From Candidatus Caribbeanibacter nitroreducens (GTDB lineage: Bacteria; Gemmatimonadota; Gemmatimonadetes; Palauibacterales; Palauibacteraceae): 64,000 bases of DNA. Shown here one piece after another: positions 7,177 to 45,082 of this stretch. Where the stretch lies: positions 12,838 to 76,837 of the forward strand of contig CANPVF010000123.1 of NCBI GenBank assembly GCA_947581645.1, given 5' to 3'. The position numbers and the translations under genes were made by a program. Below the pieces are notes generated by a model that had not been told where the DNA came from, did not search any database, and was given only the letters and a program-made list of their open reading frames with translations. How positions within the stretch are numbered: position 1 is the stretch's first letter; each line of letters opens with the position of its first letter.

Positions 7177-7685
7177 CGGTCGAGCTCCACTTCAACCGCT
7201 TCGACGAGTGGACGGCGGCCCGGGAGGCGCTGCCGGCGGCAGAGCGGGCGGCCCGGGACGCGCTCTCCCGCCGTGATCCTCCGGAGGGCGACGGCGGGGA
7301 GAGCCCGGGCGGAGAGGTCTCCTTCACCTGCCTGGCCGCGGACGAGATCACCGAGATGAACCGCCGCTACCTGGACCGCGACCGCCCCACCGACGTCATC
7401 GCCTTTCCCCTCTCCGACCCCGACGCGCCGCCGGTGGGCGACGTCTACCTGTGTCCGGACGTGGCCCGGGAGTCGGCCGCCGAGCGCGGGCTCCCGGCGG
7501 CGGAGGAGATCGTGCGGCTCGTCGTCCACGGCGCCCTGCACGTCCTGGGGCACGTGCACCCGGAGGGAGAGGGGCGCGAGTCCTCGGAGATGTACCGCCT
7601 GCAGGAGGAGATCGTGGAGCGGGCGCTGGAGCGGGGCGCACCCGGGCGCCGGGGCGGGGCGGCGGAGGGCGAGGACCGGGCGTGA
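7173..7685 (+). CDS. ybeY: rRNA maturation endoribonuclease YbeY
   Basis: Metal-binding motif 'HGALHVLGHVH' (HxxxHxxxxxH) typical of YbeY, with the right size and operon context. Confidence 0.85.
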   Translation: MTVELHFNRFDEWTAAREALPAAERAARDALSRRDPPEGDGGESPGGEVSFTCLAADEITEMNRRYLDRDRPTDVIAFPLSDPDAPPVGDVYLCPDVARESAAERGLPAAEEIVRLVVHGALHVLGHVHPEGEGRESSEMYRLQEEIVERALERGAPGRRGGAAEGEDRA

Positions 7686-8425: not shown

Positions 8426-9756
8426 AGCCGGAGGAGCGGGGCCCCTATCTCCAGAGCCTGCTGGAGCAGAAGAGCACCGGGGAGGTTCGCGAGTACTTCG
8501 CCAGCCTCCACCCCAGCGACGTCGCGGACCTCCTGGAGGACCTGAACGAGGACGAGCGCCTGTGGGTGCTCTCCATCCTCCCGACGGAGCTGGCCTCGGA
8601 GTCCCTGGCCGAGATGGAGGAGGCCGAGCACCCGGGCGAGCTCCTGACGCGGCTGGACCCGGACCGCGTGGACGAGCTCGTGGCCGAGCTGGCGGACGAC
8701 GACGCGGCGGACCTCATCGGCGAGCTGGGGCCCGAGGAGCAGGCCCGCGTCCTCTCCACCGTGGAGGGCGGGGACGAGATCCAGGAGCTCCTGGAGTACC
8801 CGGAGGAGACGGCGGGCGGGATCATGACCCGCGACCTCATCGCCGTCCCGTCGGGACACACCTGCGGCGAGGCCCTGGACGAGATCCGCCGGCAGGCGGC
8901 CGAGATGGAGGACTTCTACTCCATCTTCGTCACCGACCGGAACGGCAACCTCCGGGGGGTGGTCAGCCTGCAGGACCTGGTGCTGGCCCAGCCCGGGACG
9001 CCGATCCTGGAGGAGGTGGAGGACCCGCCGGCGCTGGTCTCGGTGGAGACGGACCAGGAGGACGTGGGGCGGGCGCTGTCCCGGTACAACATGGCCTCCA
9101 TCGGCGTGGTGGATCCGCTCAACCGGCTCGTGGGTCGCGTCACCTTCGACGACGTGATCGACGTCATCGAGGCGGAGACCACCGAGGACATCCTCCGCTT
9201 CGCCGCGGTCTCCGACGAGGAGGAGGTCCGGGGCGGCACGCGTGAGGCCATCCGGAGCCGGCTCCCGTGGCTCATCGCCAACCTGGGCACCGCCGCCCTG
9301 GCGGCCTCCGTGGTCTGGTACTACCAGGACACCATCGACGCCATCGTCACCCTGGCCGCCGTGATGCCGATCATCGCGGGCATGGGCGGCAACGCCGGTA
9401 CGCAGGCGCTGGCCGTCACGGTCCGACGCATCGCCGTGGCCGACGAGTCCCTCACCGAGCGGTGGCGCGTGGTGGGCAAGGAGGTCGTGGTCGGCCTGGT
9501 GAACGGCCTGGTGCTGGGCGGCATCCTGGCGCTGGCCGGGCTCTTCCTGGCCGGCCAGCCCATGTACGGCCTGGTGGTCATGATGGCCATGTGGGGCAAC
9601 CTGATCGTGGCCTCCTTCGCCGGCGCCTTCATCCCGATCTTCCTCGAGAGCCTGGGGGTGGACCCGGCGGTGGCCTCGTCCATCTTCGTCACCGCCCTCA
9701 CCGACCTGGCCGGCTTCTTCCTGCTGCTGGGCCTGGCGTCGGCCCTGCTGCTCTGA
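8422..9756 (+). CDS. mgtE: magnesium transporter MgtE
   Basis: N-domain, tandem CBS domains ('GIMTRDLIAVPSGHTCGEALDEIRR...') and a C-terminal 5-TM domain with 'MGGNAGTQ' and 'TDLAGFF' motifs. GTG start overlaps the DUF502 stop. Confidence 0.85.
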   Translation: MKPEERGPYLQSLLEQKSTGEVREYFASLHPSDVADLLEDLNEDERLWVLSILPTELASESLAEMEEAEHPGELLTRLDPDRVDELVAELADDDAADLIGELGPEEQARVLSTVEGGDEIQELLEYPEETAGGIMTRDLIAVPSGHTCGEALDEIRRQAAEMEDFYSIFVTDRNGNLRGVVSLQDLVLAQPGTPILEEVEDPPALVSVETDQEDVGRALSRYNMASIGVVDPLNRLVGRVTFDDVIDVIEAETTEDILRFAAVSDEEEVRGGTREAIRSRLPWLIANLGTAALAASVVWYYQDTIDAIVTLAAVMPIIAGMGGNAGTQALAVTVRRIAVADESLTERWRVVGKEVVVGLVNGLVLGGILALAGLFLAGQPMYGLVVMMAMWGNLIVASFAGAFIPIFLESLGVDPAVASSIFVTALTDLAGFFLLLGLASALLL

Positions 9757-9793
9757 TGGTGTTTCGGACACGGAGGACGGGGGGAGCGACCCG

Positions 9794-10828
9794 ATGAACG
9801 GGGTCGGCGGCGGGCGAGAGGAGAGGGGGCCGGAGCCCGGGGAGGAGCCCCCGGCCGGGCTCCTGGAGGAGTTCGGCCGGGGACGGCAGCGGGCCCTGGC
9901 CCGCGCCATCTCCATGGTGGAGGACGAGACGCCCGGATTCGAGGCGCTCCTGGACGCCGTGCACGAGCGGGTGGGGCGGGCGCGGCGGATCGGGATCACG
10001 GGGCCGCCCGGAGCCGGCAAGTCGACCCTGACGAAAGAGCTGGCCCGCTCCTACCGCCAGGAGGGCCTCCGGGTGGGGGTCATCGCCGTGGACCCCACGA
10101 GCCCCTTCAGCGGCGGCGCCCTCCTGGGCGATCGGGTGCGGATGACGGAGCTGGCGTCGGACCGCGGTCTCTTCATCCGCTCCATGGCCAGCCGCGGCTC
10201 CCTGGGAGGGCTGGCCACGTCCACGCGGGAGGCGGCGGACCTGATGGACGCCTTCGGCCTGGAGAGGGTGCTGCTGGAGACGGTGGGCGTCGGGCAGTCG
10301 GAGCTCGAGATCGCCCGCACCGCGGACACCACGGCCGTGGTGCTGGTGCCCGAGTCCGGCGACGGCATCCAGGCCATGAAGGCCGGGCTGAACGAGATCG
10401 CGGACCTCTTCGTGGTGAACAAGGCCGACCGTCCCGGGGCCGACCGGCTGCGCAAGGAGCTCGAGATCATGCAGCGGATCCGGGGCGGCCGGGACGAGGA
10501 GATCGACTGGGAGGTGCCCGTGCTCCAGACCGTCGCGTCCGAGGCGGAGGGCGTCGGCGAGCTCCTGGAGCGGCTGGACGCCCACTTCGGCCGCCTGCGG
10601 GAATCCGGCGCCCTGGAGGCGCGGCGCACGGACGTGCGCGTGGAGCAGGCCCGATCCGTGCTGCTCCGCCGCCTGGAGCGGGCGGCCGACAGCCAGTGGG
10701 AGGAGCGCCGGGACGAGATCCGCCGCCGGCTGGCCTCCGGGGAGGCGTCGCCGTACGCCGTGGCGGCGGAGATGGAGGCCGCCTTCCGCCGCGAGATGGC
10801 CGCCGGGGGGGATCCCGCGCGGAGCTGA
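9794..10828 (+). CDS. meaB: methylmalonyl-CoA mutase-associated G-protein chaperone MeaB/ArgK
   Basis: P-loop 'GITGPPGAGKST', 'VNKADR' and G3 'ETVGVGQSE' motifs of the MeaB/ArgK GTPase family, directly upstream of mutase genes. Confidence 0.85.
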   Translation: MNGVGGGREERGPEPGEEPPAGLLEEFGRGRQRALARAISMVEDETPGFEALLDAVHERVGRARRIGITGPPGAGKSTLTKELARSYRQEGLRVGVIAVDPTSPFSGGALLGDRVRMTELASDRGLFIRSMASRGSLGGLATSTREAADLMDAFGLERVLLETVGVGQSELEIARTADTTAVVLVPESGDGIQAMKAGLNEIADLFVVNKADRPGADRLRKELEIMQRIRGGRDEEIDWEVPVLQTVASEAEGVGELLERLDAHFGRLRESGALEARRTDVRVEQARSVLLRRLERAADSQWEERRDEIRRRLASGEASPYAVAAEMEAAFRREMAAGGDPARS

Positions 10829-10846
10829 TCCGCCGGTGAGCCGTTC

Positions 10847-10869
10847 GGACGGGCGGGCAACGCCCGTCC
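10847..10869 (+). terminator. perfect 9-bp GC hairpin after meaB (candidate terminator/attenuator)
   Basis: ggacgggcg-ggcaa-cgcccgtcc lies 19 nt after the meaB stop. No clear U-tract, as is common in high-GC genomes. Confidence 0.35.
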
Positions 10870-10972
10870 AGGGAACGGAACGCGACACGGGGTGGTATGG
10901 TGAGCGGGAGGATCCCCCGCCCCTGGAGCCGCGGAACCCCGTGCCGCCGCAACCGACTGCCGGAGAGGTACC

Positions 10973-12733
10973 ATGAGCACTGTCGAGCAGGAAGCCGAGC
11001 CCGAGGCCGCAGCCGACGAAGCGGAGGGCGCCCCCGAGCGGGAGGCCCTGGAGGAGGAGGTCCGGCGCAAGCGGCGCGAGCTGGCGGAGCTGGAGCGCGA
11101 GCTGGAGGAGTGGGACGAGGAGTACGACGACGTCCCCAAGCGGGACGCCAACTTCACCTCCGTCTCCGGCCGCGAGGTCCAGCCCCTCCACACCCCGCTG
11201 GACCTGGAGGAGGCCGACTTCGACTACCGGGAGGACCTGGGCTTCCCCGGCGAGTATCCCTTCACGCGGGGCCCGTACCGCAGCATGTACCGGACGAAGC
11301 TGTGGACCATGCGGCAGTTCTCCGGGTTCGCCACCGCCGAGGAGACGAACGAGCGCTACAAGTACCTGCTGGACCAGGGCCAGACGGGCCTGTCGGTGGC
11401 CTTCGACTTCCCCACGCTGATGGGATACGACTCCGACAGCGGGCGGGCCGAGGGCGAGGTCGGGAAGGTCGGCGTGGCCATCTCGAGCCTGGCCGACATG
11501 GAGACGCTCTTCGACGGCATCCCGCTGGACGAGGTGTCGGTCTCCATGACCATCAACGGCCCGGCCATGATGCTCTACTGCTTCCTGCTGGCCGCGGCCG
11601 AGAAGCAGGGCGTCCCCCACGAGGAGGTCCGGGGGACCATCCAGAACGACGTGCTGAAGGAGTTCATGGCCCAGCACGCCTGGATCTTCCCGCCGGAGCC
11701 GGCGCTGAAGATCGTGGCCGACACCTTCGAGTGGTCCTCCCGGAACGCGCCGAAGTTCCACCCCATCTCCATCTCCGGCTATCACATCCGGGAGGCCGGG
11801 GCCACGGCCGCCCAGGAGCTGGCCTACACGCTGAAGAACGGCTTCACCTACGTGGAGAAGGGCCTGGAGCGGGGCCTCGACGTGGACGACTTCGCCCCGC
11901 GGCTCTCCTTCTTCTGGGACGTCCACAACGACTTCTTCGAGGAGATCGCCAAGTTCCGGGCGGCGCGCCGGATCTGGGCCCGGCACATGCGCGAGGAGTA
12001 CGGGGCCGAGGACCCCAGGAGCCTCCGGCTCAGGACCCACGCCCAGACGGCGGGCGTCACCCTCACCGCCCAGCAGCCGCACAACAACATCGTCCGGGTC
12101 GCCTACCAGGCCATGGCGGCGGTGCTCGGCGGCACCCAGTCGCTCCACACCAACGCCATGGACGAGACCCTGGCGCTCCCCACCGAGGAGACGGCGCGCA
12201 TCGCCCTGCGCACCCAGCAGATCCTGGCGCACGAGACCGGCGTTCCGAACAGCATCGACCCCCTGGCGGGCTCCTACTACGTGGAGTCGCTCACGGACGA
12301 GCTGGAGCAGGAGGCCGAGGAGATCTTCGAGGAGATCGACCAGATCGGCGGTGTGGTCGAGGGCATCCGCTCCGGCTACTTCCAGCAGCAGATCGCCGAC
12401 TCCTCCCGCCGCCACCAGCAGGAGGTCGAGTCCGGCGAGCGGACCATCGTCGGCGTGAACGACTTCCAGGTGGAGGAGGACACCTCCATCGACATCCTCA
12501 AGATCGGCGAGGACGCCGGCAGGACCCAGGAGCGGCGCCTGGCGGAGCTCCGGGAGCGACGGGACGACGCCCGGGTGCGGGAGGCCCTGGACCGCCTCCG
12601 CGAGGCCGCCGAGGAGGACGAGAACCTGATGCCGCCGACGCTGGAGGCGGTCCGCGCCTACGCCACCCTTGGCGAGCTCCGTCAGACGCTGGAGGACGTC
12701 TACGGCCGCTTCCAGGAGCCGGTGGGGTTCTGA
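10973..12733 (+). CDS. methylmalonyl-CoA mutase-like, catalytic (N-terminal/large) subunit of a split mutase
   Basis: Acyl-CoA mutase TIM-barrel signature ('[12 protein letters not shown]', '[37 protein letters not shown]'). No B12-binding domain in this ORF. A 60-aa acidic coiled-coil N-extension is present. Substrate (methylmalonyl- versus isobutyryl-/other) is not determinable from sequence. Confidence 0.85.
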
Positions 12734-15008: not shown

Positions 15009-16385
15009 ATGAGCGACGATACGGTGCGCGTGGCCTCCGGCCAGGGGTTCTGGGGCGACTGGCTCGAGGCGCCGAAGCTCCAGGTCCGGCAGGGTCCCAT
15101 CGATTACCTGATGCTGGACTACCTGGCCGAGATCACGATGTCCATCATGCAGAAGCAGCGGTCGCGGAACCCGGATGCCGGCTACGCCCGCGACTTCGTG
15201 CCGCTGATCCGGGAGCTGGCGCCGGACCTGATCGAGCGGGACGTGACGGTGGTCTGCAACGCCGGCGGCGTGAACCCGGAGGGATGCCGGGACGCGCTGG
15301 TGGAGATCCTCGCCGACGTCGACCTCCCACGCCCGCTCCGGATCGGGGTGGTCACCGGCGACGACGTCCTGTCCGACATGGACGGCCTCATCGAGCGGGG
15401 GCACGACATGCGGAACATGGAGACCGGGGAGCCGCTCTCCTCGGTCCAGGACCGGGTGCAGGCCGCCAACGCCTACCTGGGTGCCGGCCCCATCGTCGAG
15501 GCCCTGGAGCGGGGGGCCGACGTGGTGGTGACGGGCCGGTCCACGGACACCGCGCTGACCTACGCGCCCCTGATCCACGAGTTCGGCTGGGGCCCGGAGG
15601 ACTGGGACCGGCTGGCCGCCGGCGTGGTGGCGGGCCACATCAACGAGTGCGGCGCCCAGGCGACCGGGGGGAACACCCTGGCCGACTGGCGGAGCGTGGA
15701 CCTGGTGGCGCCGGGATATCCCATCGTGGAGGCCCGGGAGGACGGCAGCTTCGTCGTCACCAAGCACCCGGGGCTCGGGGGACGGGTGACGTGGGCCACG
15801 GTGACCGAGCAGCTGGTGTACGAGATGGGCGATCCCGCGGAGTACATCACGCCGGACTGCGTCGCCGACTTCTCCACCATCGAGCTGGAGGACCTGGGCG
15901 GCGACCGGGTGGAGGTGAAGGGCGTCGAGGGACGGGAGCGGCCGGAGCAGCTGAAGGTATCCATCGCCTACCGGGACGGGTTCAAGGCCACGGGCACGCT
16001 CACCTACGCCTGGCCGGACGCGGTGGAGAAGGCGCGGCGCGCGGACGAGGTCCTCCGCGGCCGCCTGGAGCGTCTCGGGCTCGAGTTCGACGAGATCCGG
16101 ACGGAGCTGGTGGGGGCCGGCGCCTGCCACGGGTCGCTGGCGGGTGAGCCCCCGGAGGAGCTCCCGGAGGTGGAGATGCGGGTGGGCGTCCGGGCCGATC
16201 GCAAGGAGCACGTGGCCCGGTTCACCCGGGAGCTGGCCCCGCTGATCCTGGCCGGCCCGCCCAGCGTCACCGGCTTCGCCGGCGGCCGGCCCAAGGTGCA
16301 GACGATCATGGCTTTCTGGCCGGCGCTGATCGACCGCGAGGTGGTGGACGACCAGGTGGAGGTCCAGATCGTGGAGGCGGCATGA
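15009..16385 (+). CDS. AtuA-like acyclic terpene utilisation family protein (DUF1446)
   Basis: 458-aa protein with an N-terminal 'VASGQGFWGDW' motif and overall profile recalled for DUF1446/AtuA. Biochemical function unknown. Confidence 0.65.
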   Translation: MSDDTVRVASGQGFWGDWLEAPKLQVRQGPIDYLMLDYLAEITMSIMQKQRSRNPDAGYARDFVPLIRELAPDLIERDVTVVCNAGGVNPEGCRDALVEILADVDLPRPLRIGVVTGDDVLSDMDGLIERGHDMRNMETGEPLSSVQDRVQAANAYLGAGPIVEALERGADVVVTGRSTDTALTYAPLIHEFGWGPEDWDRLAAGVVAGHINECGAQATGGNTLADWRSVDLVAPGYPIVEAREDGSFVVTKHPGLGGRVTWATVTEQLVYEMGDPAEYITPDCVADFSTIELEDLGGDRVEVKGVEGRERPEQLKVSIAYRDGFKATGTLTYAWPDAVEKARRADEVLRGRLERLGLEFDEIRTELVGAGACHGSLAGEPPEELPEVEMRVGVRADRKEHVARFTRELAPLILAGPPSVTGFAGGRPKVQTIMAFWPALIDREVVDDQVEVQIVEAA

Positions 16386-16771
16386 AGGTGCAGCTCAGGG
16401 AGGTCGCCTTCGCCCGTTCGGGCGACAAGGGTGACACGGCCAACGTGGGCCTGATCACCTACACGGAGGAGGCCTACGAGGCGCTGGTCCGGGAGGTCAC
16501 CGAGGAGCGGGTCGAGGGACACTTCGGCGAGCTCTGTCAGGGAGGCGTGGAGCGGTACGAGATTCCGAACCTCCGGGCGCTGAACTTCCTCCTGCACGGC
16601 TCCCTGGACGGCGGCGGAACGCGGTCCCTGATGCTCGATGCCCAGGGCAAGACCTTCTCGACGGCCCTCCTGCGGATGGAGGTGGATCTCCCGGAGGAGG
16701 TCGTCGACGGGGTGCGGGACCGGATGCACGAGGAGCGACGGCGCTGGCGCGAGGGGGACGACGGTGAGTGA
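16382..16771 (+). CDS. DUF4387-family small protein (AtuA-associated)
   Basis: 129 aa, start overlaps the stop of the DUF1446 gene (ATGA). 'FARSGDKGDTANVG' is recalled as the DUF4387 signature; these two families are typically adjacent. Confidence 0.55.
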   Translation: MKVQLREVAFARSGDKGDTANVGLITYTEEAYEALVREVTEERVEGHFGELCQGGVERYEIPNLRALNFLLHGSLDGGGTRSLMLDAQGKTFSTALLRMEVDLPEEVVDGVRDRMHEERRRWREGDDGE

Positions 16772-17528
16772 CCTCGTTCACCTGGACGTGGACGACGCCA
16801 CGGGGGTCGCCTGGGTGGTCATGAACCGCCCGGAGCGGCGGAACGCCCTCAACCGCGGGCTGGTGAGGGACCTGAAGCAGGCGTTCCGGGAGGCCGACGG
16901 GGACGAGCGCGTCTCCGCCGCGGTGCTGGCCGGCTCCGGGCCCGACTTCTGCGCCGGGGCGGACCTGGCGGAGATCCGGGAGGCCGTGGAGGAAGGCATC
17001 ACGGCGAACCTGGCGGACGCCGAGTCGATGGGGGAGCTCTTCGTCCTGCTGCGCGGCCTGGAGACGCCGGTGATCGCGGCGGTCCACGGCCGGGCCCTGG
17101 CCGGCGGGAGCGGCCTGGCGGCGGCCTGCGACATGGTGGTGGCGTCCTCCGGCGCGGAGTTCGGCTTTCCGGAGGTGACCATCGGCTTCGTTCCCGCCAT
17201 GGTGATGGCGATCCTTCGGCGGGCCGTGGGCGAGAAGCAGGCTTTCGAGCTCGTGACCACCGGTGACCGGATCGACGCCGAGCGCGCCCGTGAGGTGGGG
17301 CTCGTGAACCGGGTCTACCCGGCCGACGACTTCGACGACCGGACGGAGGAGTTCGTGGAGGACGTGGCCTCCAACAGCGCCACGGCCATGGCCCTGACGA
17401 AGAAGCTCCTCTACCAGATGGACGGACAGAGCTTCCAGTCGGCGATCCAGGCCGGCGCGGAGATGAACGCCCTGGCTCGCCTCACGGAGGACTGCCAGGA
17501 GGGCATCGCCCGCTTCCTGGACGAGTGA
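16764..17528 (+). CDS. enoyl-CoA hydratase/isomerase (crotonase) family protein
   Basis: Crotonase fold motifs ('NRPERRNAL', 'GPDFCAGADL', 'AAVHGRALAGGSGLAAACD'). GTG at 16764 overlaps the upstream stop; start position is uncertain. Confidence 0.75.
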   Translation: MSDLVHLDVDDATGVAWVVMNRPERRNALNRGLVRDLKQAFREADGDERVSAAVLAGSGPDFCAGADLAEIREAVEEGITANLADAESMGELFVLLRGLETPVIAAVHGRALAGGSGLAAACDMVVASSGAEFGFPEVTIGFVPAMVMAILRRAVGEKQAFELVTTGDRIDAERAREVGLVNRVYPADDFDDRTEEFVEDVASNSATAMALTKKLLYQMDGQSFQSAIQAGAEMNALARLTEDCQEGIARFLDE

Positions 17529-18026: not shown

Positions 18027-18812
18027 ATGTCAGGAACCACCGAGACGAGCGAGCGTGAGCCCGGGGACGGGCCGCCCTCCGATCCGACGCGCTCCCTGGA
18101 CGTCCAGTCCATCGGTCGCCTGGGAGCCGCGGCGGCGTGGATCGCCACACTGGGCGGCGGCGCCGGCTCGTACCTCCTGGTGACCGCCGGGGGGCGCACG
18201 GCGCTGACGGCCGGGATCCTCCTGGGAGTGGTGGCGCTGGCGGGCCTGGCCGTCGCCCTGCAGGCCACCGGGGAGTCGTGGCCCGGCGAGCCGGGATACG
18301 GCGAGGCCGGGGACGGGGAGACCGAGGCCGGCGCCGAGAGGTACCTGCCGCTGGCCGACCGGCTGGCCCTGGGCCTGCTGGGCGGCGCCCTGGGCGGGAT
18401 CGCCGTCACGCTGGGCGTGTGGGTGGCCGACGCCGTCGGGATCGCCGACCTGCTGGGTGTGCAGATCGCCGGCGCCCTGACCGCCACGGCGCTGGGGCTG
18501 CGGGCCTGGTACGGCGCGCTCTGGGGGATCGTGCTGGCCCTCCTCTATCCGCGTCTCCCGGGACGCTCGGCCGTGTCGAGGGGGACGCTGTTCGGCCTCG
18601 CGCCGGCGGTGTACGCGCTCCTGGTCCTGTATCCCCTGGTGCTGGATCTCGGCTGGTTCGGCGCCGACCTCGGCGTCCTCACCTTCGTCTTCGTGGTCCT
18701 CTTCCACCTGCTCTGGGGCGCCGTGGCCGGCGGCCTCTTCCGGTGGGCCGAGGTGACGGACCTCGGCGTGCTGAGCCGTCCCCTGGTGGAGCGTCACTTT
18801 TCCGACGCGTGA
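18027..18812 (+). CDS. hypothetical polytopic membrane protein
   Basis: 261 aa with about 6 hydrophobic Gly/Ala/Leu-rich helices and few Arg, unlike the spurious high-GC ORFs. No family recognised. Confidence 0.5.
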   Translation: MSGTTETSEREPGDGPPSDPTRSLDVQSIGRLGAAAAWIATLGGGAGSYLLVTAGGRTALTAGILLGVVALAGLAVALQATGESWPGEPGYGEAGDGETEAGAERYLPLADRLALGLLGGALGGIAVTLGVWVADAVGIADLLGVQIAGALTATALGLRAWYGALWGIVLALLYPRLPGRSAVSRGTLFGLAPAVYALLVLYPLVLDLGWFGADLGVLTFVFVVLFHLLWGAVAGGLFRWAEVTDLGVLSRPLVERHFSDA

Positions 18813-18818: not shown

Positions 18819-19013
18819 GTGAGTGAGCCGCCGACGTCGACCCGGAAGTGGTGGCTGGGCCTCCAGGCGGGCTACGGGCTCGGGGGCGGGGCCGTGTGGG
18901 TCGCCGGCAAGGTCACGGAGAACGAGTTCGTGGCCGGGGCCGGTCTCGGCCTGGTGGTGGCCGCCCTCATCCTCCGGTTCGGCCGCATGGCGGCGGCGGA
19001 CGAAAATGAGTAG
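18819..19013 (+). CDS. hypothetical small membrane protein
   Basis: 64-aa ORF immediately after the previous gene, overlapping the next gene's start. Two hydrophobic segments. Weak support. Confidence 0.3.
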   Translation: MSEPPTSTRKWWLGLQAGYGLGGGAVWVAGKVTENEFVAGAGLGLVVAALILRFGRMAAADENE

Positions 19014-20160
19014 GAACCGGATCCGTCCGCCCGGCGAGGCGCTCGTCGCGATCGTCCTCGCGGCCCTGGCTCTCGGACCGTCGGGCGCCCTCGCCCAGGA
19101 CACCGTACCGGCGCCGGACACCGTCGCGGCGGGAGCGGGAGATGCCTTCTTCGGCCGCTCCTACGCCGTGCTCGCCTACGACGCGGCCTCCGGACAGCTG
19201 GGCGTGGCCGCCGCGTCGACGGAGTTCTCCGTGGCGTCCGACGGGGTGTACCTGGAGCCCGGGACCGGGGCGGTCTCGATCCAGGGACGGGGGAGCGGCG
19301 CCCCGGGGCGGCGGATCATGTCGGCGCTGCGGTCGGGACGGAATCCGGCCTCGGCCCTGGGGACGGCGTCGGGACAGGGGGCCCCGGTGCAGGCCGCCGC
19401 CCTCACGCCCGCCTGCGATCGCGCCACCTCCCGGGCTCCGGGATCGGAGGACGAAGCGGCGAGCCGCCCGGGGCGCTCCGGGGGCGTCTGCTACGTGGCG
19501 CTGGGCGTCCGGCTCCGGAGCTCCCGGAGCATGGATCGCCTGGTGCGTGCCTTCCGGTCCTCCGCCGGCCCCCTGACGGAGCGGCTCCTGGCCACCCTTT
19601 CCGCCATGGAGGGGGCGGCGCGGAACGTCGGCGGCAGCCGGTCGGCGGTGCTCTGGGTCGCCGCCGACGGGGCCGACGGAGCCGTACTGGGCCGACGCGA
19701 GCTGAGGCTCCAGGTGGACGACCACGAGCGTCCGGCGCTGGCCCTGGAGAAGCGTCTCGAGGTGGGGCGCGCCGAGTGGATGGCCGGCCGCGCGAGTCGG
19801 GCCATCGACCGCAGCGCCTACCGGCGGGCGGCCGCGCTGGCCGACTCCTCGCTGGCCCTGGACGTGTCGGCGCCCATGGCGTGGCTCCAGCGGGGACGTG
19901 CGCTTCTCTACATGGGGCGGGAGGAGGCGGCGGAGACCGCCTTCCAGCGGATGCTGGAGCTGGACCCGTTCCTCCTGCGGCTCCTGGGGGACGCCTCCGG
20001 GACCGAGATCACCGTCCGGGAGAGCGTGATACCGTACTATCCGCGGCTGATCCTGCAGCTCGATCTCTACCGCCGGAAGTACTTCGACGGCCTGGACTTC
20101 GGCCCGGAGCCGGCGCCCTTCGGATCGGGAGCGGCCACGCCGGACACGGCGGGCGGGTAG
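19006..20160 (+). CDS. secreted protein, possibly DUF1028/Ntn-hydrolase-like with C-terminal TPR-like helical repeats
   Basis: ATG at 19006 with a Sec signal peptide ('MSRNRIRPPGEALVAIVLAALALGPSGALAQD'). C-terminal helical TPR-like segment. The N-region's resemblance to DUF1028 is weak and the family call is tentative. Confidence 0.45.
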   Translation: MSRNRIRPPGEALVAIVLAALALGPSGALAQDTVPAPDTVAAGAGDAFFGRSYAVLAYDAASGQLGVAAASTEFSVASDGVYLEPGTGAVSIQGRGSGAPGRRIMSALRSGRNPASALGTASGQGAPVQAAALTPACDRATSRAPGSEDEAASRPGRSGGVCYVALGVRLRSSRSMDRLVRAFRSSAGPLTERLLATLSAMEGAARNVGGSRSAVLWVAADGADGAVLGRRELRLQVDDHERPALALEKRLEVGRAEWMAGRASRAIDRSAYRRAAALADSSLALDVSAPMAWLQRGRALLYMGREEAAETAFQRMLELDPFLLRLLGDASGTEITVRESVIPYYPRLILQLDLYRRKYFDGLDFGPEPAPFGSGAATPDTAGG

Positions 20161-20212: not shown

Positions 20213-20419
20213 CTACTCCATCTCCACCTCGCAGCCCGCCTTGCACCCCTCCCGCCAGCCGTCGCAGTACTCGTCGTCGATCTTCCCGATGGTCACGTTG
20301 CATCCGGCGCCGATCGTCTCGCAGTAGATCCGGCACAGGCCGGCCTCGGCCCGGGGCACGTCCGGGCCGACGATCGAGAACAGTACCAGGGCCGCCGTGG
20401 CGGCCAGCACGCGTCGCAT
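20213..20419 (-). CDS. small secreted six-cysteine peptide (paralog 1), 68 aa precursor
   Basis: Strong RBS (GGGAGAGGAAC) before ATG at 20419. Sec-type signal peptide 'MRRVLAATAALVLFSIVGPDVPRAEA'. Mature region 'GLCRIYCETIGAGCNVTIGKIDDEYCDGWREGCKAGCEVEME' has Cys spacing C-x3-C-x6-C-x11-C-x6-C-x3-C. Paralog of the adjacent peptide gene. Confidence 0.55.
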   Translation of the reverse strand: MRRVLAATAALVLFSIVGPDVPRAEAGLCRIYCETIGAGCNVTIGKIDDEYCDGWREGCKAGCEVEME

Positions 20420-20457
20420 GGTTCCTCTCCCGTGGTGTGGGTCCAGGTGGGGGCGGC

Positions 20458-20655
20458 TCAGAGCCGGGCGATGTTGCAGCCGGCCAGGCAGCCCATGATG
20501 TAGAAGCCGCATCGGAACGACTCGAGGTCGTCGCAGTCCGCGGCCGCCCGCTCTCCGCAGTACTCGGTGCAGGGCTGCGCCCACAGGGGCTCGGGACGTG
20601 GTCCCGTGGCCGAGAGCAGCGACAGGGCGGCGAAGGCGACGAGGAAGCGTCTCAT
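20458..20655 (-). CDS. small secreted six-cysteine peptide (paralog 2), 65 aa precursor
   Basis: ATG at 20655 overlaps the TGA of the upstream TlpA-like gene (ATGA), with a GGGAGA RBS. Signal peptide '[27 protein letters not shown]'. Mature 'PCTEYCGERAAADCDDLESFRCGFYIMGCLAGCNIARL' has Cys spacing C-x3-C-x7-C-x7-C-x6-C-x3-C and shares a 'C.AGC' end with paralog 1. Confidence 0.55.
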   Translation of the reverse strand: MRRFLVAFAALSLLSATGPRPEPLWAQPCTEYCGERAAADCDDLESFRCGFYIMGCLAGCNIARL

Positions 20656-21257
20656 GGTGTTCTCCCGCTGGGGGATGAGATCGGGGCGAATCCCGCCGGG
20701 ACGGTCCCGGCGGGCGACACCCGGCGAAGGCGATCGAGAACCCGGTCCACGTCGGCGGCGGTGAGGACGCCGGCCCTGCTCCACACGAGCCGGCCGCTGC
20801 CGTCCACCAGCTGCGTGGTGGGAACGGCCCGGACGCCCATCAGGTGCGTCGTCCTGTTCCTGTCGGCGGGACCGGCGGCCAGGGCACCGGGAAGCTGCTC
20901 CCGCGCGTAACCGAGGGCGGGGAGCCGCTCCTCCAGCCCCACGGCCACGGCCGGAACGCCCGGAGGGCGCTCCTCCAGCAGCCGGCGCCATGCCGGCAGG
21001 TTCCTGGTGCAGGCCGGACAGGTGGACTGGAAGTAGAGGAGCAGGGCGGGCCGGAAGCGGTCCAGCGCCGCCGTGTCGCCCGTGGCGAGCGAGACCAGGC
21101 CCAGGTCGCCCGGCACGGCCTCGCCGACCTCCACCACCCGGTGCGTCCGCCAGGCCGGCAGGAGGCGGTCGCGGACGAGGAGGGCGGCAGCCGCCGTCAG
21201 CAGGACCGCCGTGGCCGCGTTGAGCCATCGCTCGAATCCGATCCTCGTTCGTCCCAT
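20652..21257 (-). CDS. TlpA/ResA/DsbE-family membrane-anchored thiol:disulfide oxidoreductase (thioredoxin fold, CPAC active site)
   Basis: N-terminal TM anchor '[18 protein letters not shown]', thioredoxin '[15 protein letters not shown]' CxxC motif, cis-Pro region '[18 protein letters not shown]' as in TlpA/ResA. Stop overlaps the start of the first Cys-rich peptide gene. Confidence 0.75.
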
Positions 21258-21455
21258 CTCCGCCCCCGTTCCGGCGTGCCGCTCGTGGTGGGTTCTGTTC
21301 GCGACTCACCGTGCCGGCCGCCCTCAACGCCCCTTCAATCGGACCGTCGCCGGCTGCCGCGCCTCCCGGGAGGATTGAGGGCGTCGTGACGCGGACGGCC
21401 CCCGTGCGTTCCGGGAAGGGACCCGGTCCGGGTCGCGAGCAGGGAAGGGAGAGAC

Positions 21456-22967
21456 GTGGAGGCGGCGGGACGGAGGCCGGAGTCGGGGAGGACGGCGGCG
21501 GGGGAGCGGTGGCTCCGAGACGAGCTCGGTCGGGCCCGCCGGGTGCTCCGCCGCGTGTACGGCCACGCCGACTTCCGCCCCGAGCAGCGTCCCGTGGTGG
21601 CGGCCATGATCGAGGGCCGCGACCTGCTCGCCGTGCTTCCCACCGGAGCGGGGAAGTCCGTCTGCTTCCAGGTTCCCGCCCTGCTGGATCGACGGCTCAC
21701 CGTGGTCGTCTCGCCGCTGGTGGCGCTGATGGACGACCAGGCCACCGGTCTCCGGCAGCGGGGTGTCCACGCCGTGGCCGCGGTTCACGGCGGGCTGTCG
21801 GGCCGGCACCGAAGCGAGGCCCTCGACGAGGCCGCGGAGGGGAAGATCAGGCTGCTCTACGTGGCGCCGGAGCGCCTGGGCTCCCGGCGACTGGAGGCCG
21901 CCCTGGGACGCCGGGAGCTGGGGCCGATCGTGGTGGACGAGGCCCACTGCATCAGCCAGTGGGGGCACGACTTCCGGCCGGCCTACCGCCGGATCGGCGA
22001 GTTCGCAGCGTCGGTGGGTGCGCCGGGACTCGCCGCGTTCACCGCCACGGCGACGCCGGCGGTCGAGCGCGACGTGGTCGAGTCGCTGGGGCTGCAAAGC
22101 CCGGCGCGGATCCGGTACCCCGTGGACCGCCCGAACCTGCTCTGGTCGGCCGGGCGCGCCGCCTCCCGGCGGGCGGGGATCGGGCGGCTCGCCCGGCTGG
22201 CCCGCCGATGCCCCGGGGCGGCGGTCCTCTACGTCGGCACCCGGCGCCGGTGCGTGCGGACGGCCGCGGCCCTCCGCCGCCTGGGCGTGGCCGCGGCCCC
22301 GTATCACGCGGGCCTCCCGGACCGGGACCGGCGGACGGTCCAGCGTGCCTTCCTCGCCGGACGGGTGCGGGCGGTGTGTGCCACCTCCGCCTTCGGCATG
22401 GGCATCGACCACGATTCGGTGCGGCTGGTGGCCCACCTGGGGATCCCCGGGTCGCTGGAGGCCTACGTGCAGGAGGCGGGACGCGCGGGGAGGGACGGGC
22501 GCCCGGCACGCTGTCACCTGGTCTCGGTGCCCGGCGAGGTCGAGCTGCAGGAGCGGCTGGCCTCCCGCCACTGGCCGTCCCCGGAAGCGGTGCGGACGGT
22601 GTGGCGGGCGATGCAGCCCGGGCGGCCCCTCCGTCCCCGGGAGGTGGCCCGCCGGTGCCGGACGGTGGGGCCCGGGGAGCGGGCGGGGGCGCTCCGCGTG
22701 CTGCGGCGGGCCGGCCTCCTGCGCCGGACCGGCGAAGGGCAGGAGAAGCGGCTCCTCCGGGCGCCGGATTGCCTGTGGCGCAGGGTGGACCTGGACGAGC
22801 TACGGCGCGGTCGGGAGCGCGCCCTGGGACGGATCGCTCGCGTGGCGGAGTACGCCGCCGCGTCGGGCTGTCGCCGCGCCGCCATCGCGCGCCACTTCGG
22901 GGATCCGGTCCCGCGGTCCTGCCGGCGGTGCGACGGATGCGCTCCGGCGGCGGGGGTGAGTTTCTGA
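21456..22967 (+). CDS. recQ: RecQ-family ATP-dependent DNA helicase
   Basis: Helicase motifs I 'PTGAGKS', II '[19 protein letters not shown]', and the later helicase/RecQ-C region. GTG start with AGGGAAGGGAGAG RBS. Divergent from the TlpA operon. Confidence 0.85.
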
Positions 22968-23041
22968 GAGGCCGCGAGGTCCGTAAGATGACGCCCGGCC
23001 GTCCGGCCGATCCGCCGATCACCAACCAGGAACGCGGGACG

Positions 23042-24268
23042 ATGATAGACACCGACCTGAGCATGTATCTCGAGGACCACCACCGCATGATGCGGGACAT
23101 GGTCCGGGACTTCGCCGAGAGCGAGATCGCCCCGGTGGCCTCCGAGCACGACGAGAAGGAGGCCTTCCCCTGGGAGAACGCCGCCGCCATGGCCGAGCTG
23201 GGTCTGTTCGGCATCCCGATTCCCGAGGAGTACGGGGGGTCGGGCATGGACCTGCTGGCCGCCGTGGTCGCCGTGGAGGAGCTGGCCCGGGTGGACGCGA
23301 GCCACTCCATCACCGTGGGAGCCCACCTGTCGCTGGCCTGTGAGCCGATCCTCCGCTGGGGGACCGAAGAGCAGAAGGAGAGGTATCTCCAGCCCCTGGC
23401 CAGCGGTCAGGCCCTGGGCGGATTCGGCCTCACCGAGCCCGACGCCGGGTCGGACGCCGGAGGCACGAAGACGAAGGCGGAGAGGACCGACGACGGCTAT
23501 CGGCTGAACGGACAGAAGACCTTCATCACCCACGGCGGCGTCGGGGAAGTCTTCATCGTCGCCGCCCGCACCTCCCCCGGCGACAGCTCGGAGGGGATCT
23601 CCGCCTTCCTCCTGAACAAGGAGACGTGCGAGCCGGAGCGCGCCCGGGAGCTCGGCTTCGGACACGCCGGGAGCCTCGAGCCCATGGAGGGCTTCACCTC
23701 CGGCGACAAGCTGGAGAAGCTGGGCTGGAACGCCTCGGACACCCGCGAGCTGATCCTCCAGGACGTCGAGGTGCCGGCGGACAACCTCCTGGGGGAGGAG
23801 GACCGCGGCTTCCGGATCTTCCTGGACACCCTGGACGGCGGCCGGATCGGCATGGCCGCCCACGCCCTGGGGATCGCGCAGGGGGCGTTCGAGAAGGCGG
23901 CCCGCTACACGGACGAGCGGGAGCAGTTCGACCAGAGGATCAACGACTTCCAGGGCGTCCAGTTCATGCTGTCGGAGATGGCGACGAAGATCCACGCCGC
24001 GCGTCTGATGACGTACCACGCGGCGCGGCTGCGGATGGAGGGCGAGGAGCACAAGAAGGAGGCCTCCATGGCCAAGCTCCACGCCTCGGAGACGGCGATG
24101 GACGTCACGACCCGCGCCGTCCAGCTCCACGGCGGATACGGCTACACCCGCGAGTACGACGTGGAGCGGATGATGCGCGATGCGAAGATCACGGAGATCG
24201 GAGAGGGAACGAGCGAGATCCAGAAGATCGTCATCGCCCGGGAGCTCCTGAACGAGCTCCGGGGGTAG
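23042..24268 (+). CDS. acyl-CoA dehydrogenase
   Basis: ACAD family throughout ('[15 protein letters not shown]', '[11 protein letters not shown]', C-terminal '[32 protein letters not shown]'). ATG at 23042 gives a typical ACAD N-terminus '[14 protein letters not shown]'; an ATG at 22988 is an alternative. The 985-aa track ORF's upstream extension is spurious. Confidence 0.85.
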
Positions 24269-24469
24269 GGGCCGCGACGGTGCCCCTGCGGCGGAGACGG
24301 GTCCGCGGCGCCCGCGTCGGCGACGCGTCACGGCCCCGGCCGCCCCGATCGCTGGACGTTCGTCTCGCTCGTACCCGCCGGGCCGCGTGAGCGGCGCGGA
24401 CGCGAGACACTCAGCCTCAAACAGCTCCCGCTGTCCGGCCGGTGGCCGGGCGGTGGGCCGGACGCGAGC

Positions 24470-25966
24470 ATGAACCGAAAAATCCTGATCAACGCCGTGG
24501 GCCACGAGACCCGCGTGGCCATCCTCGAGGACGGCCAGCTCGTCGAGCTCATGTACGAGCGGCCCGAGACCCGCCGCATGGTGGGCGACATCTATCTGGG
24601 CCGGGTGGAGGCGGTGCTGCCGGGCATCCAGGCCGCCTTCGTGGACATCGGCACCGAGAAGGCCGGGTTCCTCCACGCCTCCGACATCGCCGAGCCCGAC
24701 CGGGACGACGACTCCGGCGGCTACACGCCGATCCAGGACCTGGTGGAGCAGGGCGACGAGATCCTGGTGCAGATCACCAAGGAGCCCATCGGCACGAAGG
24801 GGCCCCGGGTCACCAACGAGGTGAGCATCCCCGGCCGCTTCCTGGTGTGGATGCCCTACGGGGACCGGGTCGGGGTGAGCCGGAAGATCGACGACGAGGG
24901 CGAGCGCGACCGGCTCCGCGACATGGCCCGCGAGCTCCTGGACGACGGTCCGGGGGGCGTGATCGTCCGGACGGTGGGCGAGGAGCTCACCCGCGAGACC
25001 TTCGAGCAGGAGCTCCGGACCCTCCAGGGCACCTGGGAGAAGATCCAGGAGCGGGCCGAGGGGATGAGCGCCCCGTCGATGGTCTACGAGGAGGCCAAGC
25101 TCATCTCCGGGATCATCCGGGACGTGTTCAGCGAGCAGGTGGACCTGCTGACGGTGGACTCCCCGGAGCTGGCCCACGAGATCAAGTCCTACCTGGGCCA
25201 GGTGAACCCGGACCTCGTGAACCGGGTGCAGGTCTACCGCAAGGACGTACCGATCTTCGACGACTACGGCATCGAGGAGGAGATCCGGGGCGCCTTCCGG
25301 CGGAAGGTGGGGCTGGCCTCCGGGGGCCACATCATCATCGAGTCCACCGAGGCCCTCGTCGCGGTGGACGTGAACACCGGCCGCTACACCGGCAAGAAGG
25401 ATCCCGAGGAGACGATCCTCCGGACGAACCTGGACGCCGCCAAGGAGATCTCGCGCCAGCTCCGTCTCCGCGACATCGGTGGAATCATCGTCTGTGATTT
25501 CATCGACATGGAGAAGGAGGAGTACCGGGACCGGGTCCAGAACGAGATGAAGACCTGGCTGGGTCGGGACCGGGCGCGCACCAAGGTGTTCGGGATCTCC
25601 GAGCTGGGGCTCCTGGAGATGAGCCGGCAGCGGGTGCGGCCGAACCTCTACCAGGCCATGACCGAGCGCTGCCCCTCCTGCGAGGGCACGGGGCGCGTCC
25701 TGGCGCCGGAGACCCTGGTCCGGCGCATCGAGCGGGCGGTCCGGCGCGCGGCGTCGAAGGGCGAGGACCGCAAGCTCACGATCCGCGTCCATCCCGAGGT
25801 GGCCCTGTATCTGCTGGAGGACGAGCGGGGCTTCCTGGGCCGGATGAAGGAGGAGGCGGGCATCCAGCTGGACGTCCGGGACGATCCGCTCATGCCCATG
25901 GGGGAGTACCGTCTCCTGGCGGCCCCCTCCGACCAGGACGTGACCAGCCGCTACGCCGTGGCGTGA
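24470..25966 (+). CDS. rng: ribonuclease G / RNase E-family endoribonuclease
   Basis: S1 domain N-terminus ('GDIYLGRVEAVLPGIQAAFVDIG'), DNase I-like region ('ALVAVDVNTGRYTGKKD'), and Zn-link 'CPSCEGTGRV'. At 498 aa it matches RNase G size. Confidence 0.85.
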   Translation: MNRKILINAVGHETRVAILEDGQLVELMYERPETRRMVGDIYLGRVEAVLPGIQAAFVDIGTEKAGFLHASDIAEPDRDDDSGGYTPIQDLVEQGDEILVQITKEPIGTKGPRVTNEVSIPGRFLVWMPYGDRVGVSRKIDDEGERDRLRDMARELLDDGPGGVIVRTVGEELTRETFEQELRTLQGTWEKIQERAEGMSAPSMVYEEAKLISGIIRDVFSEQVDLLTVDSPELAHEIKSYLGQVNPDLVNRVQVYRKDVPIFDDYGIEEEIRGAFRRKVGLASGGHIIIESTEALVAVDVNTGRYTGKKDPEETILRTNLDAAKEISRQLRLRDIGGIIVCDFIDMEKEEYRDRVQNEMKTWLGRDRARTKVFGISELGLLEMSRQRVRPNLYQAMTERCPSCEGTGRVLAPETLVRRIERAVRRAASKGEDRKLTIRVHPEVALYLLEDERGFLGRMKEEAGIQLDVRDDPLMPMGEYRLLAAPSDQDVTSRYAVA

Positions 25967-26002
25967 TCCCGGCCGCCCGGAGCCCGTGGCCCGACTCCTG
26001 CA

Positions 26003-26031
26003 TTGACAGGGGGCGCCGGCGAGCGTAAGGT
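26003..26031 (+). promoter_or_regulatory. sigma70-like promoter candidate upstream of rplU-rpmA
   Basis: TTGACA (26003-26008), a 17-nt spacer, then TAAGGT (26026-26031). It lies about 140 nt upstream of the rplU ATG in the rng-rplU intergenic region. Confidence 0.4.
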
Positions 26032-26170
26032 AGCGGGCCGCTGACGCCCCGGGCTCCCGTCCCGGACGCGGCGCCCCAGCGATCGCCACAGCCGGGCTCT
26101 CCGGCGGCACGACGAGGTACCGAGCGACCGTTCGACGACCACCGAGATTCCCCAGACGGCCGAACAAGTC

Positions 26171-26950
26171 ATGTACGCGATCTTCCGCGCGAAAGGAAAG
26201 CAGTTCCGGGCCGAGCCGGACAAGACGATCCGGATCCCGAGCCTGGACGCCGAGCCCGGCGACACCGTGACCTTCGACGAGATCCTCCTCGCCGAGGAGA
26301 ACGGCGACGTCCACGTGGGCCGCCCCACCCTGCACGGAGGAGCCGTGTCGGCGGAGGTGGTGGAGCACGGCAAGGGCGACAAGATCATCGTCTTCAAGCG
26401 GAAGAAGCGGAAGAACTACCGCCGCAAGTACGGCCACCGCCAGCCGTACACGGAGATCCGGGTCGTGGACATCGACCTGGGCGAGCCGGGCGAGGCCGGC
26501 CCCGCGCCGGAGACCGCCGAGGAGGTGGCGCCGGAAGAGGCGCCGGAGCCGACCGCCGCCGAGGAGGCCGGGGAAGAGGCGGAGGAGGCCGCGGCCGACG
26601 AGGTGGACATCACCGACGCCGCCGAGGAGCTGGCCGACGAGCACGGCATCGACGTCGCGACCATCGACGGCACCGGCAAGGGCGGGCGAGTGCTCAAGTC
26701 CGACGTGCAGGACGCCGTCGACGCGCAGGAAGCCGACGAGGCGGAAGAGGAGGACGAGGCGGAGCCGGTCCGGGCCGAGGAGGAGCAGGGGCTCGCGGCC
26801 GAGGACGTGGACATCACCGACGCCGCCCGGGAGCTGGCCGACGAGCACGGCATCGACATCACGACCATCGACGGCACCGGCAAGGACGGGCGGGTTCTCA
26901 AGTCCGACGTGCAGGACGCCGTCGACGCCCAGGCGGGGAGCGAGGAGTAG
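26171..26950 (+). CDS. rplU: 50S ribosomal protein L21 with long C-terminal extension containing two E3-binding-domain-like repeats
   Basis: N-terminal about 105 aa is canonical L21 ('[40 protein letters not shown]...[31 protein letters not shown]'). It is followed by an Ala/Pro/Glu-rich linker and two 42-aa repeats '[42 protein letters not shown]'. rpmA is directly downstream. Confidence 0.8.
26597..26937 (+). repeat. in-frame tandem direct repeat inside rplU (two about 126-nt units, period 204 nt, about 90% aa identity)
   Basis: Units at 26603-26728 and 26807-26932 are near-identical at the nucleotide level and encode peripheral-subunit-binding-domain-like modules. Confidence 0.8.
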
Positions 26951-27104
26951 AGGGACGACCGGCGCCTCCCGGGGGAGCTCCCGGGAACAGCGACGGGGCT
27001 CGCCGGTACCGCCAACCGGCGAGTCGGCCGGACCACGGGAGGTGCGAGCACTCCCGACGCCGGCGACGCGAGCGAAGAGACGCATCACCGACCGCGAGGA
27101 CACG

Positions 27105-45081: not shown

Positions 45082-45082
45082 C

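Follow-up and report, generated by a model that had tools for sequence, protein, structure and literature searches.

We analysed a 64,000-nt stretch of a metagenomic contig (CANPVF010000123.1, from Candidatus Caribbeanibacter nitroreducens), called here the window, which has a G+C content of 71.7% and carries three consecutive genes on its minus strand: a gene for a membrane-anchored thioredoxin-fold oxidoreductase (Trx), and two small genes, pepA and pepB, whose predicted secreted products contain six cysteines each. Positions in the window are collected in Table 1. The TGA stop codon of Trx (20654-20652) overlaps the ATG of pepA (20655-20653), and a GGGAGA Shine-Dalgarno sequence lies 5 nt before this ATG, inside the Trx gene, while the sequence GGGAGAGG stands 4 nt ahead of the pepB ATG. 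Both precursors start with MRR, followed by a hydrophobic stretch and an AxA-like site (LWA-Q, AEA-G, the hyphen marking the site). A reading made earlier from the sequence only had described the trio by its coordinates, the ATGA overlap, the 38-nt spacing, the signal peptides and the six cysteines, and this description proved accurate when the window was read again. A sigma-70 consensus scan of the region between Trx and the divergent recQ gene gave no match, and promoter and terminator scans of the minus strand gave no useful result.

Table 1. Positions of the three genes, their regulatory elements and the other genes considered in the window.
Feature	Position	Strand	Description
Trx	20652-21257	-	ATG start, 201 aa; membrane-anchored thioredoxin-fold oxidoreductase, from ORF and sequence
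pepA	20458-20655	-	65-aa precursor; predicted Sec signal residues 1-26 (20578-20655); mature part 39 aa (20461-20577)
pepB	20213-20419	-	68-aa precursor, pepA paralog; predicted signal residues 1-26 (20342-20419); mature part 42 aa (20216-20341)
Coupling element	20652-20666	-	GGGAGA Shine-Dalgarno (20661-20666) within the Trx 3' end and ATGA stop/start overlap (20652-20655)
pepA-pepB spacer	20420-20457	-	38 nt; holds the pepB Shine-Dalgarno GGGAGAGG (20424-20431)
Divergent intergenic region, Trx to recQ	21258-21455		Presumed operon promoter region, from the ORF map
recQ	21456-22967	+	Divergent from Trx; identity from Pfam/NCBIfam scans
DUF1028-TPR gene	19006-20160	+	Secreted protein with DUF1028 (Ntn-hydrolase-like) and TPR
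64-aa ORF	18819-19013	+	Between pepB and the membrane protein gene
Membrane protein gene	18027-18812	+	261 aa, multi-pass, no Cys, no Pfam/NCBIfam match
AtuA, AtuA-ferredoxin-like and enoyl-CoA hydratase genes	15009-17528	+	Carboxyltransferase gene further upstream
COX1	42824-44536	-	Heme-copper oxidase subunit I (E 9e-52); region to 45129
COX2-like gene	within 42824-45129	-	Adjoins COX1, upstream; weak match (E 0.004)
SURF1	37570-38595	-	Assembly factor, about 4 kb from the oxidase

All three genes are real and conserved. They are identical in two independent assemblies, and gene finders called each of them. A word-indexed search returned 39 Trx homologs (46-95% identity) and 24 peptide homologs, and a scan of the JGI metagenomes with the peptide alignment added 41 loci; the pattern STCPACxRNL, which was too strict, matched one locus only in a scan of GTDB genomes. 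The sequence-only reading had taken the small open reading frames (ORFs) for genuine genes, and they are indeed conserved in related loci, with intact frames and 6/6 cysteines kept in 37/37 loci for pepA and likewise for pepB. The alternative that they are chance open frames in GC-rich DNA has to be considered in a window of this composition, which is full of long spurious ORFs. However, the six cysteines stay invariant down to about 30% peptide identity, the in-frame G+C contents at third codon positions (GC3) are 0.89 and 0.96 for the two small ORFs, an AGGAG-type Shine-Dalgarno sequence and an ATG are found at both peptide genes in all loci (4-9 nt apart for pepB), and the structure model described below is confident. 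The conservation data effectively refute the chance-frame alternative, which we regard as next to inconceivable. Elsewhere in the window, open frames of up to 1529 aa run antisense or out of frame to real genes, for example at 22514-27103 (minus strand) and 21311-24268 (plus strand) and in many other places; such very long frames are artefacts of the 71.7% G+C content, and a filter on GC3 and on the G+C content at second codon positions leaves about 39 plausible genes.

Wherever the sequence is long enough, in about 45 loci whose Trx identity goes down to 34-38%, the order Trx, pepA, pepB on one strand is kept. It is shared by a metagenome-assembled genome (MAG) from GTDB (L006), by an NCBI MAG with 47% Trx identity (L003) and by L053 and L054, which are edge members of the Trx orthogroup. 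The gene-neighbourhood search that the sequence-only reading had proposed thus found the Trx homologs adjoined by six-Cys ORFs wherever the sequence suffices, at a spacing of 5.4 kb in one case (L005), and the fixed order on one strand upholds its view of the trio as a self-contained, co-inherited module. In 42/43 loci no more than 60 nt separate the Trx stop from the pepA start, and the pepA-pepB spacer measures 12-55 nt in nearly all of them. Translational coupling through ATGA, proposed in the same reading, is present in the window but not universal: with start codons chosen by the analyst, the 4-nt overlap occurs in about 10 of the 43 loci and a gap of 4-58 nt in 32 others. Only in the overlap clade has Trx a conserved C-terminal G-R-x-P motif, which is what a constraint on the C-terminus by the overlapped ribosome-binding site and start codon would produce.

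The Trx protein combines a hydrophobic N-terminal segment with the motifs STCPAC (residues 78-83) and VPTT (residues 145-148). Its anchor is an 18-residue hydrophobic segment from about residue 10, with a mean Kyte-Doolittle value of 2.3. Positive charges are more numerous on the N-terminal than on the C-terminal flank of this segment in 82 of 100 orthologs (medians +3 and 0), which predicts an N-in/C-out orientation with the thioredoxin domain in the periplasm. The C80-x-x-C83 pair and the V145-P146-T147 triplet never vary among 15 to 22 divergent orthologs, and W90 is invariant across the orthogroup. Of about 100 orthologs, 94 have the active site STCP(A/T/V)C, where a Thr occupies the position before the first active-site cysteine that is usually held by Trp (S-T-C-P-x-C), and 92 contain no cysteines other than these two. 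Matches to curated models are all below threshold, both in Pfam (Thioredoxin_2, E 0.027; Redoxin, E 0.04; sub-gathering) and in NCBIfam (dsbE, 5e-5; StoA; ResA; far below the cut-offs). A profile of the orthogroup matched PDB sequences in the range E 5e-8 to 1e-2, including 3hdc (4.9e-8), StoA (1.7e-7), ResA (3.6e-6), DsbE/CcmG (8e-3) and DsbF. These matches support a TlpA/ResA/DsbE-like protein at the superfamily level and give no subfamily, so that the label 'TlpA-type' used in the sequence-only reading stands for the superfamily but not against the curated models. NCBI names its homologs 'TlpA family protein disulfide reductase'.

The Trx orthogroup comprises about 100 clusters at E <= 1e-37 and is well delimited, the next match being at 3e-16. 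The nearest out-group Trx (P0186; L055, 386-1288) belongs to a lower-GC organism and is a canonical Redoxin with TTCPVCQKNLPAW; it shares the signature C-P-x-C-x-x-N-L-P-A-W. An 84-aa ORF begins 36 nt after it and encodes a signal peptide and six cysteines in the arrangement C-x5-C-x7-C-x8-C-x16-C-x5-C; it is not homologous to pepA or pepB (hidden Markov model score -1.7). After another out-group Trx (L056), an ORF begins with a signal peptide and runs off the end of the contig. The L055 locus hints that this branch of thioredoxins is habitually paired with small Cys-rich exported products.

Export through the Tat pathway, suggested by the MRRFL start, was ruled out by the replacement of the RR pair in other clades by KR, RN, RI, KI or RH (starts MKR, MRN, MRI and MKI); this pair not being conserved, the signals are of Sec type. 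AxA-type cleavage sites lie directly before the Cys domain in all clades. From these sequence features we conclude that export in the diderm Gemmatimonadota would end in the periplasm, barring the action of a further system, for which no gene lies nearby; the mature peptides are thus predicted to reside in the periplasm.

The two mature peptides, of 39 aa (pepA) and 42 aa (pepB), are 39% identical with all six cysteines aligned. Their frameworks in the window are C-x3-C-x7-C-x7-C-x6-C-x3-C for pepA, which ends in ...GCLAGCNIARL, and C-x3-C-x6-C-x11-C-x6-C-x3-C for pepB. Among the homologs, pepA has the spacing 3,7,7,6,3 in 37 loci and 3,9,7,6,3 in 2, and pepB has the spacing 3,6,n,6,3 where n is 10, 11 or 12 only. 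The Cys pattern is therefore palindromic, with length variation almost only in the middle, at the turn. The Cys number is even, namely 6, in 37/39 loci for pepA and in 37/39 for pepB. Other near-invariant positions are a Tyr before C2, a Gly before C5 and before C6 (GCxxGC, 97-100%) and an Ala-Ala pair in helix 1 of pepA (95-100%), and the pepA stretch YIxGCLAGCN is conserved at 97-100%. The mature parts of both paralogs have a median net charge of -2, and pepA a median of 0 His and 0 Met. All loci of sufficient length have pepB following pepA. Every sub-lineage has both paralogs, so the duplication is older than the split of these lineages and neither copy has been lost; the peptides are ancient paralogs, in agreement with the tandem duplication read from the window.

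Extra cysteines were seen in two loci. In L054 (2681-3194), pepA carries a seventh cysteine at its end (...GVTNC), and at C1 of pepB there is a CC doublet; these two additional residues possibly form an intermolecular disulfide between the paralogs. In L053 (4843-5079) the extra cysteine is in pepB only.

The fold of pepA was predicted with AlphaFold2 from an alignment of 24 sequences. The model of the mature peptide (pLDDT 90.3, pTM 0.61) consists of a helix at residues 3-14, a turn at 15-20 and a second helix at 21-38; in the model of the full precursor (pLDDT 76.7) the signal peptide is a separate helix. The cysteines fall at i, i+4 and i+11/12 in helix 1 and at i, i+7 and i+11 in helix 2, on one face of each helix. 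Moreover, the indices of C1 and C6, of C2 and C5 and of C3 and C4 add up to a constant value (34/34/34 in pepB, 31/31/32 in pepA), and this ladder on a single face is what an antiparallel hairpin with three nested cross-links predicts. Conservation of the Gly and Ala residues fits very close packing of the helices. Overall, the palindromic ladder, the interface Gly and Ala and the even Cys number make the cysteines lean to structural disulfides, for which spacing and helix periodicity suggest the nested connectivity C1-C6, C2-C5, C3-C4. A helical-wheel reading of the consensus revealed a second, conserved hydrophobic stripe on helix 2 of pepA, opposite the cysteines (W25-L28-A32-I36-L39), whereas the outer faces of pepB are polar. 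In view of this stripe, pepA probably binds a partner, which may be pepB, itself or the membrane.

The peptide family is small. With the mature-peptide profile, HMMER found 12 proteins in an exhaustive search of 1.84 billion cluster representatives; of these, 11 (clusters at 50% identity) are genuine secreted six-Cys peptides of 66-75 aa and one (P0072) is a spurious repeat protein. The named members all belong to Gemmatimonadota: MAG entries labelled 'hypothetical protein', a 'marine benthic group bacterium' and Candidatus Benthicola marisminoris (order Palauibacterales, PAUC43f). Trx orthogroup and peptide family share the same narrow phyletic range, and both have abrupt edges. The family hosts form a small group of uncultured marine and soil Gemmatimonadota. 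No relative was found in Pfam or NCBIfam, where the best match was a chance one to 'Big defensin' (E 0.12); the peptide profile gave one chance match to PDB sequences (E 0.57), and Foldseek with the peptide model returned only three matches to the PDB (E about 8). The literature searched holds no account of bacterial peptides of this kind. The statement of the sequence-only reading that they belong to no described family therefore holds across Pfam, NCBIfam, the PDB and the 1.84 billion representatives, which gave only the family itself.

Two adjacent small paralogous genes with GxxxG-like motifs (GCLAG) may evoke a two-peptide antimicrobial or signalling pair, bacteriocin-like or alpha-hairpinin-like, for which Trx would be a folding accessory. 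Dedicated oxidoreductases are indeed known in bacteriocin operons, PedC (pediocin) and BdbA/BdbB (sublancin) being folding accessories of this kind. However, the peptides are anionic and their Sec signals would, in a diderm, stop them at the periplasm. No exporter, leader peptidase or immunity gene was found within 6 kb in four independent long loci, and neither tblastn against phages and plasmids nor a scan of IMG/VR detected any copy of the peptides. The trio is a fixed core trait for which no strain-level presence or absence was seen, and the strong conservation of pepA contrasts with the fast evolution of toxins. We consider this alternative very unlikely, and the toxin or bacteriocin part of the first hypothesis of the sequence-only reading is disfavoured on the same grounds.

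The reading we favour, with about even confidence, is that the two peptides are dedicated periplasmic substrates of Trx, folded as hairpins that are stapled by three nested disulfides. The first gene would encode a membrane-anchored thiol-disulfide oxidoreductase of TlpA/ResA/DsbE type whose domain faces the periplasm, and the next two its dedicated substrates, anciently duplicated and Sec-exported mini-proteins of 39-46 residues. Each mini-protein would form an antiparallel alpha-hairpin with its six invariant cysteines lining the helix-helix interface, where the ladder would make the disulfides C1-C6, C2-C5 and C3-C4. Since oxidation of neighbouring cysteines as they emerge from the Sec channel would mis-pair the CX3C motifs, a co-expressed reductase or isomerase would plausibly be needed; Trx may reduce or isomerise the wrong pairs, or hold the thiols reduced until the hairpin has formed, and the mature products would remain in the periplasm. 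That Trx would act on the peptides, probably by reduction or isomerisation, we infer from the co-occurrence of the genes, their tight operon spacing, the matching narrow distributions and the profile match of Trx to the extracytoplasmic reductases StoA, ResA and CcmG.

Precedents exist for a dedicated thioredoxin-fold protein serving a Cys-rich exported product. TlpA reduces Sco/CoxB, the L055 pair described above may be another case, and methylamine dehydrogenase depends on MauD to acquire its six disulfides (bioRxiv 10.64898/2026.03.05.709764).

Several points weigh against the proposal of dedicated, disulfide-stapled substrates. The connectivity derives from Cys spacing rather than from Cys-Cys distances in a model, and metal ions could be held by cysteines in this same geometry. 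ResA-like reductases typically have an acidic residue after beta3; the window protein has one there (E109), though the position is not invariant in the wider orthogroup. Median pairwise dN/dS ratios of the mature parts are only moderately low (0.38 for pepA and 0.51 for pepB), with dS near saturation, so that these ratios count for little. The whole neighbourhood is syntenic in the lineage, which makes adjacency weaker evidence of a functional link. Finally, in the L005 subclade a 5.4-kb block parts Trx from pepA and pepB, and in L052, a relative of L005, no peptides were found within 5.9 kb before the contig end. L005 had appeared to be a case of Trx without peptides, which was resolved when the pair was located 5.4 kb downstream, past the inserted block.

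These last observations also bear on the possibility that there is no dedicated relation, Trx being a general envelope reductase (in cytochrome or protein maturation, for instance) and the peptides being oxidised by the general Dsb machinery. In a region that is syntenic throughout, co-occurrence may be inherited rather than selected, and the wide gap in L005 and the absence of peptides from the sequence available in L052 are in keeping with it. On the other hand, location on the same strand, gaps of no more than 60 nt and ATGA overlaps in several clades describe a single transcription and translation unit; the shared phyletic range with its abrupt ends, and the secreted six-Cys ORF downstream of the nearest out-group Trx, likewise speak against independence. 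We therefore judge the absence of any dedicated relation quite unlikely.

A different function for the thiols, the second hypothesis of the sequence-only reading, deserves more weight, although the sequence evidence leans to the oxidative-folding part of its first. The peptides could be periplasmic metal-thiolate carriers or buffers whose cysteines stay reduced and bind a soft metal such as Cu(I), the TlpA-like protein keeping them reduced; the metal could sit in a Cu4S6-type cluster or in a four-helix bundle of pepA and pepB with 12 inward cysteines, like a miniature copper storage protein (Csp). All cysteines of each helix share one face, the nearest structural relatives of Trx are reductases, its homologs carry a reductase name at NCBI, and the peptides are acidic, not cationic. 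A conserved core trait is what homeostasis functions would show, both paralogs are kept in every lineage, the extra hydrophobic stripe of pepA would need a partner, and each L054 paralog has a seventh cysteine. Against this, there are no conserved His, Met or other auxiliary ligands, and searches of Pfam, NCBIfam and the PDB showed no similarity to Csp/DUF326 or to any metal-binding family. Export by Sec, not Tat, means that no cofactor is loaded beforehand, and the invariant interface Gly and Ala suggest helices closer than a metal cluster would allow. The conserved neighbourhood contains no copper or metal genes. The sequence-only reading had pointed to an oxidase 22 kb away; a heme-copper oxidase (COX1) is present at about that distance, but its link to the trio has no synteny support. 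On balance, metal carriage appears unlikely to us while remaining a serious contender, and the more specific version, a hetero-oligomeric bundle of pepA and pepB in which at least 12 inward thiolates buffer Cu(I) or another soft metal under a dedicated TlpA-like reductase, slightly less likely still.

Comparison with known systems helps to place the enzyme and its proposed disulfide-stapled substrates. Known members of the TlpA/ResA/StoA/CcmG (DsbE) group each serve a narrow set of envelope substrates, and CPTC is also a CcmG-type motif. Like them, Trx has an N-terminal anchor, a thioredoxin domain of about 150 aa, a CxxC motif and a cis-Pro loop, and its best profile matches are structures of StoA, ResA and DsbE. 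It differs from TlpA, ResA and CcmG in being very divergent, with Thr for Trp before the first cysteine, and in its surroundings: no ccm/ccs, sco or spore genes lie nearby, and the apparent substrates are two undescribed mini-proteins. The trio resembles MauD and the methylamine dehydrogenase small subunit in that a CxxC protein of thioredoxin fold is encoded with a small, very Cys-rich periplasmic product. Unlike that system, it has no MauE-like CXC membrane partner (the conserved membrane neighbour is Cys-free), no mau genes, no tryptophan tryptophylquinone cofactor and no match to the MauD model, and its products are 4-kDa hairpins rather than an enzyme subunit.

The peptides themselves bear a likeness to the plant alpha-hairpinins, which follow the pattern XnC1X3C2XnC3X3C4Xn with four cysteines in nested C1-C4/C2-C3 pairs (PMC7191063), and to the animal CS-alpha/alpha toxins. 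The outer four cysteines of pepA and pepB have the same CX3C...CX3C arrangement, the predicted fold is a helix-turn-helix and the nested pairing rule would be shared. They differ from alpha-hairpinins by a third, inner Cys pair (six cysteines, not exactly four), by being bacterial, by individual Sec precursors as opposed to the vicilin-type or modular precursors of plants, and by an anionic instead of a cationic character. The plant peptides are antimicrobial or inhibit trypsin. In the absence of sequence similarity, this likeness would reflect convergence on a simple fold, not homology. The small Tim (twin-CX3C) and twin-CX9C (CHCH) substrates of Mia40 are also helical hairpins with nested disulfides and a dedicated oxidoreductase, and the compartment they occupy is the homologue of the periplasm. 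One of the three Foldseek matches was to a small Tim chain, at a non-significant E of 8.6. These proteins differ from the peptides in the lack of homology, in that the peptides are half their size, have three rather than two predicted disulfides and carry a Sec signal, and in the enzyme, a thioredoxin fold as opposed to Mia40. Csp1 is exported, and no thioredoxin partner of Csp is known. Csp are helical proteins with many cysteines on inward helix faces (PMC5171941). The peptides differ from them in having two helices and six cysteines within 39-46 aa, compared with a four-helix-bundle monomer of more than 100 aa, in giving no sequence match and in their Sec rather than Tat signal.

Two further families were considered and rejected. 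For class IIb two-peptide bacteriocins, the precursors have Sec signals with AxA sites and no double-glycine leader, and no transporter or peptidase occurs within 6 kb in four long loci. For SCIFF/ranthipeptides (six Cys in forty-five residues), there is no NCBIfam match and no radical-SAM gene nearby, and signal peptides are present.

That a thioredoxin-fold enzyme may be encoded together with the Cys-rich exported product to which it is dedicated is a known principle. What the libraries and papers searched do not describe is the peptide family, the proposed bacterial three-staple hairpin, the paired paralogs and the divergent Trx branch. If the proposal of dedicated substrates is true, one thioredoxin-fold enzyme with two defined 4-kDa substrates would offer a clean model for the making or proofreading of non-consecutive disulfides in the bacterial envelope, and the peptides a new kind of bacterial alpha-hairpin scaffold held by three disulfide staples, which is of interest to peptide engineers. 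Were metal-thiolate binding true instead, the trio would represent a new kind of periplasmic metal buffer; as a thiolate bundle, it would be a minimal, exported two-gene counterpart of the copper storage proteins and the first periplasmic metal buffer to be maintained by a thioredoxin. The trio is also a conserved envelope trait that defines the PAUC43f/Palauibacterales lineage of uncultured marine Gemmatimonadota, about whose physiology very little is known.

The trio occupies a fixed slot in about 20 divergent loci. recQ lies divergently upstream, and downstream, on the other strand, follow a Cys-free membrane protein of about 240-260 aa, an enoyl-CoA hydratase, an AtuA-ferredoxin, AtuA and a carboxyltransferase. 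This fixed syntenic slot indicates a vertically inherited, lineage-specific core module, and the impression of a locally accessory-looking patch given by the window had to be abandoned: only the DUF1028-TPR gene and the 64-aa ORF are clade-specific inserts, found in the window clade (also in L006 and L007) and absent from L003, L053, L054 and the marine clades. In about 20 related loci a homolog of the membrane protein gene is oriented convergently to pepB, most often as the very next gene, and could be a functional partner or simply syntenic. A role as a redox partner of the DsbB/VKOR/MauE kind was ruled out, this protein being without cysteines. The AtuA and enoyl-CoA hydratase genes form a conserved catabolic cluster of acyl-CoA/terpenoid type that anchors the regional synteny.

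In the L005 subclade (4871-12495), recQ is truncated (312 aa). The 5.4-kb block inserted there holds a beta-propeller protein, several unclassified proteins and a BlaI/CopY-type Penicillinase_R repressor, which lies directly upstream of pepA on the other strand. In the marine clades, genes for six-bladed beta-propeller lipoproteins that are weakly DUF5128-like are found repeatedly at no more than about 3 kb from the trio; the window has no homolog at this position. Such genes were located at 626-1510 in L009 and at 1771-5314 in L052, and upstream of recQ in L017, L020, L024, L026, L028, L030, L033, L035, L040, L042 and L049. In L009, the beta-propeller lipoprotein gene is on the same strand as pepB and overlaps its stop codon by 4 nt.

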